Source: a virus
Lineage: Duplodnaviria > Caudoviricetes
Length of the DNA: 34,632 nt
IMG/VR virus record: IMGVR_UViG_3300033067_000886
Location: 1-34,632 of that record
Reading direction: 5' to 3' (one strand)
Shown: piece after piece, positions 2,085 to 24,474 of the stretch
Layout of the letters: each line of letters begins with the position of its first letter
Position numbering within the stretch: position 1 is the first letter of the stretch
Notes under the pieces: model-generated
The model's input: the letters and a program-made list of their open reading frames with translations, nothing else
Database searches by the model: none
What the model was told of the DNA's origin: nothing
Translations under genes and position numbers: made by a program

Positions 2085-2968
2085 CAGGGGGTCTCCGTTC
2101 CGAACGTGGCGCCGCGGTAGCCGAAGTCGTCAACGACGGCGGTGGATTGGATCATGGCCTGCAACTCTGCGAGGAGCTTCTGATACTCGCCGTCGTCTTT
2201 CATGAATTTGGCGGCGGCAGCCATCGTCCCGACGAGGATCAGGTTGGGGTACTTGGTCGTGAGGAAGTTGCTGGTGTTGGTCGGCCCGAGCGGCAATGGC
2301 ATCTTGAAGTAGGGCAGCTTCATCACGGCGGCGGTGTCGAAAGCGAAGTCGAACTTCACTGCCTCATCCCAGACCGCCCAGGCCATCGGCGATCCCGCGA
2401 CAAGGTTCGCGGCCGTGTAAGCCGCGCTCGACCCGCCGCCGGAGCTTGAAGCGCTGGCGGTTCCGCCGGTGTCGATGACGAAATTGTCTGCATCCGTCAC
2501 GCTATCGACCGGGAAGGTGCCGTTCATCGTGATGCCGTTGACGGCGGCGGCGCCGGAGATCGTGACGGCGGAATCCTGATTGATGCCGTGCGCGGTATCG
2601 TTGACCGTCACCAAGCCACTATCCGCCACGGTGGTAAACGGGTTGTTGCCCAGCGCGACCGAGGCAACCTGCTCGTACATGCGCCGGCCCTCGATCACAG
2701 GCTGGATCAGCTGATCGTAGGAGACGTTGTTGGTGACGTCTCTAATCTTGCCGATCGGATCGAGAAAGCCGCTCGGCAGATCGACCGAGGCCTGACCAAT
2801 AGCTGCGCCGAACACCCACTCGCTGCGCATTTCGCGCGTGCGGAGCATCTGGAAGATGAGCCCTTCGGCCCATAGCAAAAGGGTCGGCGCATCCATCTTG
2901 GAATAGCCGACCCAATTGAGGATGGAACCAGCCGTACCTTTTGCGGCGGTGAGACTGATATAATCCAT
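2084..2968 (-). CDS. Head-tail adaptor protein with an inserted beta-rich (FCCH-like) module
   Basis: Adaptor-like motifs LRTREM...VDLPSGFL and TSNFLTTKYPNLILVG, located downstream of the capsid genes. Confidence 0.7.
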   Translation of the reverse strand: MDYISLTAAKGTAGSILNWVGYSKMDAPTLLLWAEGLIFQMLRTREMRSEWVFGAAIGQASVDLPSGFLDPIGKIRDVTNNVSYDQLIQPVIEGRRMYEQVASVALGNNPFTTVADSGLVTVNDTAHGINQDSAVTISGAAAVNGITMNGTFPVDSVTDADNFVIDTGGTASASSSGGGSSAAYTAANLVAGSPMAWAVWDEAVKFDFAFDTAAVMKLPYFKMPLPLGPTNTSNFLTTKYPNLILVGTMAAAAKFMKDDGEYQKLLAELQAMIQSTAVVDDFGYRGATFGTETP

Positions 2969-17879: not shown

Positions 17880-18233
17880 TTATTGTAAAGAAATACACCA
17901 ACGCTGTTGATGCGTTTTGAGGCGGTGACAGTTCGCACACAGGGTTTGGAGATTTTCTGGCGCTGAATTGTTGTGATCGCCGTCGATATGATCGACATCG
18001 AGTTGGCATGGGTGAGCGGCGACGAAGCCGCAGCGCTCGCAGAGCCCCTTCTTTTTCTTGGTGTACGCGGGACCGCGTTTTGTCGTTCGATAGCGCCGCT
18101 CATCGCATGGAGAGCACAGCGGCCGAAATTTACCGCCTGGACGCTTCTTTTGGGGATTTTTACCACACTTTAGACAAAGGCCGCGGATCGCGGCTCCATC
18201 CCCTTTGACGTAGACCTGCTTTGACACCACCAC
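17880..18233 (-). CDS. HNH endonuclease
   Basis: CERCG...LDVDHIDGDHNNSAPENLQTLCANCHRLKT plus N-terminal CxxC pairs. Confidence 0.88.
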   Translation of the reverse strand: MVVSKQVYVKGDGAAIRGLCLKCGKNPQKKRPGGKFRPLCSPCDERRYRTTKRGPAYTKKKKGLCERCGFVAAHPCQLDVDHIDGDHNNSAPENLQTLCANCHRLKTHQQRWCISLQ

Positions 18234-18238
18234 CCCCC

Positions 18239-18275
18239 AAACGCAAAGCGCCAGCCGTACATCCGGGCTGGCGCT
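18239..18275 (-). terminator. Putative intrinsic terminator closing the structured RNA locus
   Basis: 10-bp stem AGCGCCAGCC/GGCUGGCGCU followed by UUGCGUUU. Confidence 0.55.
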
Positions 18276-18560
18276 CCACTGACGCGGGACGGATCAGGTT
18301 CACCCCGGGGCTCTCACCGGCCGGTCCTGATCTGTGTCCCCGCAACCATGCCGTTCTCGGCAAGCGAACCCCTCGCAGGGTAAAAATCCACGGCACCAGC
18401 CAGCGGCTCCAGTGCCGGTCGGGCTTCCGCCCTTTCATGACGCGCCTGTCCGCTGGCGCGCTCCGGGTATTGGTCCCGGCCCTGAAACAACGCTGGGGGC
18501 ATTGCCTCGGGCCGGGGGCGCTCCCGGTCGGGAGGGAATCTCGACCGAGAACTCGAAACT

Positions 18561-18637
18561 TGGTTGCGGGGGTCAGATTCGAACTGACGACCTCGTGGTT
18601 ATGAGCCGCGCGAGCTACCGGGCTGCTCCACCCCGCA
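18561..18637 (-). tRNA. tRNA-Met(CAT), initiator-like
   Basis: Cloverleaf TGCGGGG-TG-GAGC..GCTC-G-CGCGG-CT CAT AA-CCACG-AGGTC-GTCAG TTCGAAT CTGAC-CCCCGCA-ACCA, closely resembling bacterial tRNA-fMet. Confidence 0.93.
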
Positions 18638-18894
18638 ACATCCCCGGCTTGCGCCGGGGGTCCACCGACTTCACCCCACGGGTGGGAGGCCTCGGCAGGG
18701 GCCTTCGCACGCTGGGGCCGTGTACCCAGCAGCTACGGAGCCGGGCGGTGCAGGGCGCGTCACCCCAGGGAGAACGCGCCAGATGCCTGTTCGTATGCAG
18801 GCACCTTGAACAGCTGCACCGCCCGAAACTGGTTCCCGCCTGCCGGAGCAAGCGGGATGCTTCAAGGACGAATCACCACCAATGAACAATCCCG

Positions 18895-18923
18895 ACTGTC
18901 TCACACCTTCCAAATCGAGGCAA
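18895..18923 (-). promoter_or_regulatory. Putative sigma70-type promoter for the structured RNA
   Basis: TTGCCT-N17-GACAGT with a TG extension; predicted start near 18888. Confidence 0.4.
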
Positions 18924-18959
18924 TACCCTTGCAGCAAAAGGGTTTCGTGCCTGTGGATT

Positions 18960-19553
18960 TCAATCTCGTTTGGGCGTCTCAGTCATTGTCTCGGTGTTGC
19001 GCACGGTGTTGTCCCAGACCCAGACGCGGCGCTCGACATTCCAGTCATAGGCCTTCCAGATCAGCTGCTCGTGGCCGGGGCTCGGGCCAACCTGACCGGG
19101 TAGCGCGCGGCCGGACAGCGCGTCGATCGCCACCTTCATCGGGGTCTCGTGGTGGACATTGTTGCGGCCGTCATAGGGTCCGCCCTCGCAGGGTCCATAC
19201 ATCGGATCGTCTTTCGGGTCGTGATCGGGCGCGTAAATGCCCCAATCAATGTCCAGTTCCTTGTCCGCGGCCAGCTGCTTGGCCATAGCGACCGTCGCTG
19301 GATCGCGCACACCCTTGTAATTGTAGAGGTGCCGGCTCTTGGCCGACTCGGCATAGATCGTGCGACGCCCGGCCTCGGTCGGGCTCTCCTCGACGACGAT
19401 ACCCTCGTTGGTCTGCCAGGAGCCATCGGGGTTCCGCCGCGCGCCGGACTTGCGCATCTTCTCGCCTACGGTCTCGCTGGTGGGCTCCTCGGCTCGATTG
19501 GCGAGCCGGCGCAGCTGGGATTGACCCTGCTTCATCCAGTCAGACAGGCTCAC
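18960..19553 (-). CDS. Hypothetical protein
   Basis: 197-aa ORF; GTG start overlaps the upstream gene. Confidence 0.7.
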   Translation of the reverse strand: MSLSDWMKQGQSQLRRLANRAEEPTSETVGEKMRKSGARRNPDGSWQTNEGIVVEESPTEAGRRTIYAESAKSRHLYNYKGVRDPATVAMAKQLAADKELDIDWGIYAPDHDPKDDPMYGPCEGGPYDGRNNVHHETPMKVAIDALSGRALPGQVGPSPGHEQLIWKAYDWNVERRVWVWDNTVRNTETMTETPKRD

Positions 19554-23323: not shown

Positions 23324-23400
23324 TGGTGCCCTCGGCAGGACTCGAACCTGCAACCGTGGAAGTAGAATTTCCCTGCTCTATCCAGTTGAGCTACGAGGGC
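23324..23400 (-). tRNA. tRNA-Arg(TCT)
   Basis: GCCCTCG/CGAGGGC acceptor stem, A20 in the D-loop, anticodon loop AT-TCT-AC, TTCGAGT T-loop and encoded CCA. Confidence 0.9.
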
Positions 23401-24287: not shown

Positions 24288-24474
24288 GTTGCGGTTCCTC
24301 CTCGCCAGCATTGATCCACCAGCACCACGTACTGGAGCACTCGTTGAAGTCGGAAAGGCTGGTGGTGCCACAGGACGAGCAGTAGCCCGGCTCGCGCTTG
24401 GCAGGCGCAGCCGGAATCGAACCGGCTCCCTCGGTTTTGGAGACCGATGTGCTACCGGAACACCTTGCACCCAT
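24277..24474 (-). CDS. Possible small Cys-rich protein whose ORF runs through tRNA-Trp
   Basis: GGAGG-N5-ATG start, open through the tRNA, ends in CSSC...CSSTWC; its stop overlaps the next gene. Confidence 0.4.
   Translation of the reverse strand: MGARCSGSTSVSKTEGAGSIPAAPAKREPGYCSSCGTTSLSDFNECSSTWCWWINAGEEEPQRAA
24399..24472 (-). tRNA. tRNA-Trp(CCA)
   Basis: GGGTGCA/TGCGCCT acceptor stem, TCGGT-CT CCA AA-ACCGA anticodon arm, GCCGG TTCGATT CCGGC T-arm, G73 and CCA. Confidence 0.88.

Follow-up and report, generated by a model that had tools for sequence, protein, structure and literature searches.

A Conserved, Apparently Undescribed Phage RNA Element Complementary to Host-Type Initiator tRNA

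Retroelement primer-binding sites for initiator tRNA are complements of the tRNA 3′ end that open its acceptor stem. As far as is known, the natural bacterial RNAs that bind tRNA, namely the T-box, RNase P, and the ribosome, touch the CCA tail only and leave the tRNA folded (see PMC7583486 and PMC10424219). In the T-box, a UGGN sequence beside a helix pairs with the NCCA end of the tRNA; 4 nt are paired with the acceptor stem closed, a specifier stem reads the anticodon, and a terminator or ribosome-binding site is switched (PMC7583486). Other papers describe theta (HDV-like) ribozymes, which are small conserved RNAs behind phage tRNAs, often tRNA-Met (PMC10879173); GOLLD and ROOL, which are large structured phage RNAs with tRNA (10.1101/2024.12.08.627333, PMC6582537, PMC5737381); CreT of the CreTA system, an RNA that inhibits translation by sequestering tRNA, working via rare codons on ribosomes and kept in check by CRISPR-guided repression (PMC12737573); and diverged phage tRNAs that stand in for host tRNAs destroyed by defence nucleases (PMC10264068).

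The DNA considered here, which we call the window, is the whole stretch of 34,632 nucleotides (positions 1 to 34,632) of IMG/VR virus record IMGVR_UViG_3300033067_000886 (Caudoviricetes), for which completeness figures of 54% and 87% are available. Tail, major head, portal, and terminase genes all lie on its minus strand, as do two further tRNA genes, Arg(TCT) at 23324–23400 and Trp(CCA) at 24399–24472. No host was found for this phage; its terminase matches are <31% identical. Positions 18236 to ~18890 are intergenic, fold strongly (z −6.1, 20 shuffles), and contain a tRNA-Met(CAT); Rfam returned only tRNAs over the window, with no other match down to E=1. The locus sequence recurs unchanged in one contig (X5) of a public run, which is possibly the source of the window. 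An HNH endonuclease gene (17880–18233, minus strand) directly follows the terminator-like hairpin and is absent from that place in the close relative L002. Running from the 5′ end, the features are as follows.

18895–18923, minus strand: possible promoter (TTGCCT, 17 nt, GACAGT), proposed by eye from relatives and not called by the consensus scan
18638–18890, minus strand: structured, clade-specific 5′ leader, its 5′ end estimated, with conserved GUGAUUCGUCC at 18876–18866
18561–18637, minus strand: phage tRNA-Met(CAU) of the initiator type, by ARAGORN and Rfam
18368–18560, minus strand: variable structured linker from tRNA to element, 193 nt here and 3–245 nt in relatives
18363–18367, minus strand: invariant UCGCU, in 15 of 15 loci
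18349–18362, minus strand: 5-bp hairpin nnCCG-AG(A/U)A-CGGnn, abutting block A on its 5′ side
18342–18348, minus strand: block A, UGGUUGC, complement of tRNA-fMet 70–76 (GCAACCA), identical in 15 of 15 loci
18338–18341, minus strand: GGGG extension, complement of tRNA 66–69, in 6 of 6 long forms and 0 of 9 short forms
18292–18337, minus strand: variable, dispensable stem between the blocks (spacing 52–100 nt in 6 loci, 3–4 nt in 9)
18283–18291, minus strand: block B, (CG)UCCCGCG, complement of tRNA-fMet 1–7 (to 9), its last G facing C1
18239–18275, minus strand: terminator-like hairpin with a conserved CGGAUGUAC loop and a stem that covaries in 5 long forms, not called by the consensus scan

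The tRNA shows the initiator features A11-U24, G30-C40, and G31-C39, with U1-A72 replacing C1xA72. Upstream, GTGAG/CRCA-like boxes are repeated around the likely promoter (18895–18994, minus strand, in the window, and also in L002, L003, L008, L010, L029, and L095); they are possibly sites for a late activator. The GAUUCGYC motif at 18866–18876 (minus strand), near the transcript 5′ end, is kept in all long forms and in L008, and in L029 it sits immediately 5′ of the tRNA; no pairing partner was found for it.

A first-pass annotation of this DNA had reported that TGGTTGCGGGG, at minus-strand 18348–18338, perfectly complements the final 11 nt of the tRNA-Met(CAT) at 18561–18637 (minus strand), and it does. 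Counted over the window with one mismatch allowed, such complements number 3 versus 1.14 expected, which is not above chance, and the exact 11-mer appeared in 59 of 100000 Markov-1 resamples of 18236–18560. What settles the 11-nt complement as real is its conservation: relatives were checked, and the site is kept in 14 further loci. The same annotation extended the pairing by a CAGAU into the T-arm, and this part has to be dropped, as it fits the window's tRNA alone and none of the five related long forms (L002, L003, L010, L029, and L095).

Read on the tRNA strand, the element runs UCGCU, 5-bp hairpin (AGAA loop), UGGUUGC, an optional stem, CCCGCG, and the terminator-like hairpin, with a core of ~37 nt and a conserved part of <40 nt. 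Two of these points go beyond the earlier annotation: the CCCGCG helix strand is a second tRNA-complementary block, and the UCGCU-hairpin abuts UGGU. The nine short forms read UGGUUGC, 3–4 nt, and CCCCGCG (CGCCGCG in L063), and the window's 66-nt hairpin is block A plus block B with a stem inserted. In five of the nine short forms, block B and the two bases before it are a perfect complement of tRNA 1–9; the short forms conserve the bases facing G5–G7, and often U8–G9, for which the element itself offers no partner. In short forms the end of block B is a possible partner of UCGC, whereas long forms keep UCGC without that need. Across 10 aligned loci the 5-bp hairpin is paired in 50 of 50 cells, with two pairs changed on both sides and three invariant, a covariation to be read with the reminder that related sequences can pass such shuffles. 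The element starts 3–5 nt past the tRNA in 4 loci and 17–245 nt past it in 11.

The terminator-like hairpin keeps a 9-nt loop, CGGAWGNAY, in the window, L002, L003, L010, L029, and L095, with a compensatory flanking pair in L029. The loop resembles the host initiator D-loop CAGCCCGG and also a CsrA-type GGA loop.

The element was found behind initiator-type tRNA-Met(CAT) genes in at least 15 loci and about 10 unrelated contexts. The 15 loci (L001, L002, L003, L010, L029, L063, L071, L095, L108, L131, L134, L194, L380, L383, and L386) derive from terminase relatives and from pattern scans of viral contigs, metagenomes, and genomes, with 120 of ~160 metagenome matches and 120 of ~210 genome matches used. 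The terminase search, which took no account of the site, gave 24 loci; both tRNA and site are present in L001 (the same phage), L002, L003, and L010, most of the others are without a tRNA, and many are short. UCGCU and the 5-bp hairpin were first seen as invariant in these terminase-derived loci. Please note that UCGCU was fixed by several search patterns and free for the terminase-derived loci and in three further scans, that block A was partly fixed and free in 7 loci, and that block B was absent from the patterns that originally found the 15 loci. The metagenome/genome pattern ended at TGGT, and among its 240 listed matches all seven with an upstream tRNA-Met(CAT) continue with TGC and paired hairpin arms, compared with 1 of the 233 others (L064). 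In a viral scan that fixed no site base, all 3 complete-hairpin matches behind tRNA-Met carried the site.

Six loci share flanking DNA and represent one phage clade; the nine others share no flanks with each other or with the clade (E<=1e-5), three of them having short flanks. The contexts include a late-gene leader, positions before HNH or small terminase genes, and positions after cII-like genes (the cII label was assigned by eye), and since they differ among loci there is no downstream gene common to all.

Candidates set aside during the scans deserve mention. Two viral pattern scans yielded 19 of 27 and 40 of 43 matches that were discarded as chance; a third yielded 26 of 30, several with synonymous-looking changes in reading frames (by eye), and the metagenome/genome pattern 232 of 240. 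L030 and L035 were dropped on inspection as chance matches, as were L593 and L595. A relaxed viral pattern (91 matches) added only L334, where a tRNA-Met is followed by TGGTTGCGGGG after a different upstream sequence and without the hairpin (1297–1540); it is possibly a distant variant of the element. In L064, block A is present without block B, and the 144 nt of available sequence contain no tRNA. Both L334 and L064 are excluded from the 15.

Several neighbors of the element are of interest in their own right. L008 (4556–4648) holds a chimeric tRNA, an initiator 5′ part fused to another tRNA at a shared GCCCGG, without the element. The tRNAs of L010 and L095 have the anticodon loop UUCAUAC, not CUCAUAA, and that of L095 has a rebuilt acceptor stem, AGCAGAA/UUCUGCA. 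A second tRNA lies after the terminator in L029. L473, L491, and L497 share a structured-looking trailer behind a U1-type initiator tRNA that is unrelated to the element.

Beyond these loci, the tRNA was the only part of the 691-nt locus that BLAST could match among 50,697 phage records, a 38-nt short form had no real match in phages and plasmids, and searching 401 family and 401 order genomes with mismatches tolerated gave no further member. Rfam, at the gathering score on 10 relatives, reported nothing but tRNA and, in L071, the end of a group II intron (2714–2790, minus strand, ~100 nt upstream of the tRNA). No variant with an altered block A (e.g., UGGUAGC for U72 hosts) was found, so no co-variation across different hosts was seen. 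Within ~260 nt of sampled viral U1-type initiator tRNA genes the element occurred in 0 of 106, and it is rare among such genes. We found no published description of such an element; supplementary motif catalogues or subscription papers could hold one. Taken at the level of sequence, this is a real, conserved, and apparently undescribed phage RNA element complementary to a host-type initiator tRNA.

The first-pass annotation had suggested that the RNA binds its own or the host initiator tRNA. Conservation in 15 loci argues for an initiator tRNA as the likely partner, and the choice between the two can be approached through L194. This locus belongs to an integrase-bearing element, also carrying HNH and methylase genes, of a Pseudolabrys metagenome-assembled genome (MAG). 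The initiator ends in that MAG are CGCGGGG...CCCCGCAACCA; L194 matches this tRNA-fMet at 14 of 14 positions and has 4 mismatches to the tRNA of its own element. Initiator ends of this type are present in 170 of 301 genomes of the class, many of them incomplete; the 170 include the unpublished G033, on which the claim does not depend. The host is known for 1 of the 15 loci (L194), and the host type is assumed for the other 14 in what follows. Block A has 0 mismatches in 105 positions against the host type, versus 11 mismatches and one G.U against the phages' own tRNAs. Similarly, block B has 6 mismatches and 3 G.U in 105 positions against the host type, versus 15 and 14 against own tRNAs. Own and host tRNA differ at 32 unfixed positions, a count that leaves aside one non-encoded A76 and whatever the finding pattern had fixed; some of these differences are not independent of one another. 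Of the 32, 29 form Watson-Crick pairs with the host, 2 pair better with the own tRNA, and 1 pairs with neither. Against the own tRNA, those 29 comprise 17 mismatches and 12 wobbles. With position 1 excluded, the host is matched at 16 of 18 positions in 10 loci. Co-variation of the site with the phage tRNA was checked and not seen, which favors the host type over the own tRNA, and the element complements the host-type initiator better than the phage tRNA.

Structure predictions can be set beside these counts, bearing in mind that folding energies ignore tRNA tertiary structure and modifications. An open UGGU beside a closed helix had been noted earlier; GCGGGG is indeed predicted to be paired, whereas UGGUU is only half to mostly open (probability unpaired 0.79, 0.51, 0.59, 0.79, and 0.50). 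Co-folding with the host tRNA, its tRNA arms fixed, gave −8.1 to −16.2 kcal/mol. Predicted binding is stronger for the host than for the own tRNA in 13 of 15 loci, with L063 and L134 predicted to bind both equally, and both blocks are engaged in the five structures inspected. L029 was shortened for co-folding, the complete L029 being self-locked. Against 39 other tRNAs, for 4 of the 15 elements, the host fMet was the top-ranked partner of 3 and took second place for 1, where the one outranking tRNA is initiator-like and had been left in the control set by the filter.

In 10 of 15 loci, including the window (−9.2 kcal/mol), the element is predicted to pair in cis with the phage's tRNA; no such lock is predicted in L010, L029, L095, L131, or L194. 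The element could, on this basis, be a purely cis device that pairs with the phage pre-tRNA to time or guide its processing. It always lies downstream of the tRNA, at a minimum of 3 nt, and cis pairing is favored by 3.5–14 kcal/mol in 9 of 15 loci. We nevertheless regard this as improbable, for at 29 of the 32 informative positions there is no compensatory change following the own tRNA, and five loci cannot lock.

The same locked precursors bear on a sensor of the uncharged host initiator, in which the free 3′ end would dock and unlock the cis-paired pre-tRNA or open the start of the next gene. Speaking for it, UGGU after a conserved helix recalls the T-box discriminator that rejects aminoacylated ends (PMC7583486), the host tRNA is the better partner for precursors locked in 10 of 15 loci, and the start codons at L380 543 (HNH) and L063 177 (small terminase), in oriented coordinates, lie 7–8 nt after block B, with no evident Shine-Dalgarno. 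The five loci without a predicted lock weigh against it, and so does the terminator-like hairpin with a U-run that follows, without overlap and on the tRNA strand, in seven other loci (by eye). The terminator switch proposed in the first pass is not supported: in the window the helix ends with block B at 18283, clear of the hairpin at 18275–18239, and no antiterminator overlap was seen in relatives. The downstream genes are unrelated and there is no specifier stem, so that we judge a sensor unlikely.

The comparison with the T-box can be completed here. UGGU is present in 15 of 15 loci, but the element offers >=14 nt to both acceptor strands and is without the specifier stem or the switched terminator or ribosome-binding site reported in PMC7583486. 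The Rfam model of T-box Stem I/specifier had no match in the window (E<=1) or in 10 relatives (gathering score), and linkers of 3–5 nt leave no room for Stem I.

The reading we prefer is that the element acts on the host tRNA. That its RNA binds the host initiator tRNA in trans is probable in our view; that the host tRNA-fMet is captured by strand exchange and kept out of use while the phage tRNA replaces it is a tentative proposal, to which we give slightly less than an even chance. UGGUU would dock on A72–A76 as a five-base toehold, five bases being available because C1xA72 is unpaired, as it is in bacterial initiator tRNAs (PMC9976931). Branch migration via C71 and G70 would release the tRNA 5′ strand, and block B would next pair with C1–G7(G9). 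A tRNA with an opened acceptor stem and a paired CCA should then be unavailable for charging, formylation, or initiation. The UCGCU-hairpin would stack on the A76 end, stabilizing or inspecting it. The phage tRNA is likely co-transcribed with the element, in which case each transcript would supply a single phage tRNA and take away a single host tRNA.

Some points sit less easily with host capture. L010, whose block B ends in A, and L064, without block B, depart from the pattern, as does L029, where CGCAACCAG, a complement within the element, masks block A completely (L029 2513–2632), which suggests a self-locked or dead variant. The cis pairing in 10 of 15 loci means that escape of the phage tRNA would be incomplete. 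Phage initiator tRNAs show U1 and acceptor drift in general, and, as none of the 106 U1-type genes carries the element, such drift need not reflect escape. A sponge acting one-to-one would require very high expression. RNA-library contigs X1–X4 (four runs, one study) span the element together with the flanking genes and carry neither strand nor end information, so they are not taken as evidence of expression.

Other relations to known systems were weighed. Phages could use host tRNA-fMet as a primer to reverse-transcribe the tRNA cassette, and its spread to unrelated phages and contexts could be explained in this way. Plant and fungal retroelements carry a UGG-starting complement of the initiator tRNA end. 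Here the 3′-end complement is 7–11 nt, contiguous pairing is only 7–8 nt in short forms, and, unlike a primer-binding site, a second block would bind the tRNA 5′ strand and the element lies behind a tRNA gene in a DNA phage. The reverse transcriptase domain PF00078 (RVT_1) was found in 0 of 9 virus records (2 complete, most incomplete) and not in the 1 host MAG, the Pseudolabrys one, with 5 metagenome loci outside the search. Priming therefore seems extremely improbable.

A catalytic RNA or protein guide would offer the host tRNA 3′ end to a UCGCU/AGAA pocket for deacylation, cleavage, or ligation. Lying next to A76, UCGCU and the loop hardly vary, which tRNA pairing does not explain, and the polarity matches flexizyme-type GGU docking. 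The HDV/theta fold was not recovered, however: with UCGCU taken, by its likeness, as the end of HDV loop L3 and one register tried, all 15 loci form 1–2 of the 3 P3 pairs and no more than 5 of the 7 P1 pairs. A theta cleavage site would lie within 5 nt of the tRNA end, and the element starts 17–245 nt away in 11 loci. There is no Rfam ribozyme match, no common neighboring protein was seen, and the core is only ~37 nt; we consider catalysis or guiding very improbable. Unlike theta ribozymes, the conserved blocks point at a tRNA in trans.

The window form, at ~650 nt, is large and structured like GOLLD and ROOL, from which it differs in having no Rfam match to E=1, a conserved core of <40 nt, and large domains that are clade-specific. 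An attP core was rejected: neither the 87% complete record of the window nor two complete relatives gave a match to a tyrosine or serine integrase, and the match consists of two short blocks. The element, in short, belongs to none of T-box, theta/HDV, GOLLD/ROOL, primer-binding site, and attP. In its predicted docking on CCA it resembles a T-box discriminator or a primer-binding site. It would share with CreT the inhibition of translation by a tRNA-sequestering RNA, but it is proposed to pair directly with the acceptor stem, and the putative antidote is a tRNA. We hold out only a slim chance that this small phage RNA opens the host initiator acceptor stem and, as a natural ribozyme acting in trans on tRNA, chemically disables the 3′ end, with the adjoining tRNA as antidote.

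It is also worthwhile to consider the opposite strand. The first-pass annotation had pointed to a plus-strand hairpin with the C1xA72, G2-C71, C3-G70, A73, and CCA pattern of an initiator acceptor stem. Such a mimic could act as a decoy for formyltransferase, synthetase, or tRNA-end toxins. The hairpin does form on paper, and its invariant bases can be read as the set that formyltransferase recognizes for identity (PMC9976931). In the window the hairpin folds better on the plus strand (−34.3 kcal/mol, z −3.5) than on the minus strand (−29.3, z −1.2), the favored strand varying by locus in whole-region energies, and a 3–4 bp microhelix in the right register is possible in five of nine short forms. 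However, the seventh pair of the window's hairpin is A x C, which leaves it short of a complete acceptor stem; in L001, L002, and L095 the plus strand has A x C at position 7 where the tRNA strand has G.U. The acceptor stem is stable in long forms and marginal in short ones, whose antisense forms of 17–18 nt reach only −1.8 to −4.3 kcal/mol; three of nine short forms fold out of register, and L194 has 2 pairs. The conserved G5–G7 and U8–G9 would sit in the loop without reason, an antisense promoter would be required in many unrelated contexts, and U-runs and GNRA/UUCG loops lie on the tRNA strand, where GCAA and UUCG loops occupy the same place in L001 and L002, respectively. The window's plus strand resembles an acceptor stem because it contains the two blocks with an inserted stem. 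A functional mimic sits poorly with the short forms and is, overall, improbable.

Returning to capture of the host initiator, its benefit for the phage is not evident. One possibility is that the phage tRNA would substitute for a tRNA attacked by host defences (PMC10264068; see also Cas12a3, PMC12851939, and FaRel2, PMC11559606). In the defence case host enzymes remove the tRNA, whereas here the phage cassette would do so. If true, an RNA of <40 nt that recognizes the initiator via C1xA72 and invades both acceptor strands would represent a new mode of tRNA recognition and a new phage route to control translation initiation. It would also speak to the old question of what phages need tRNA genes for, as in this case the need would arise from the cassette itself.
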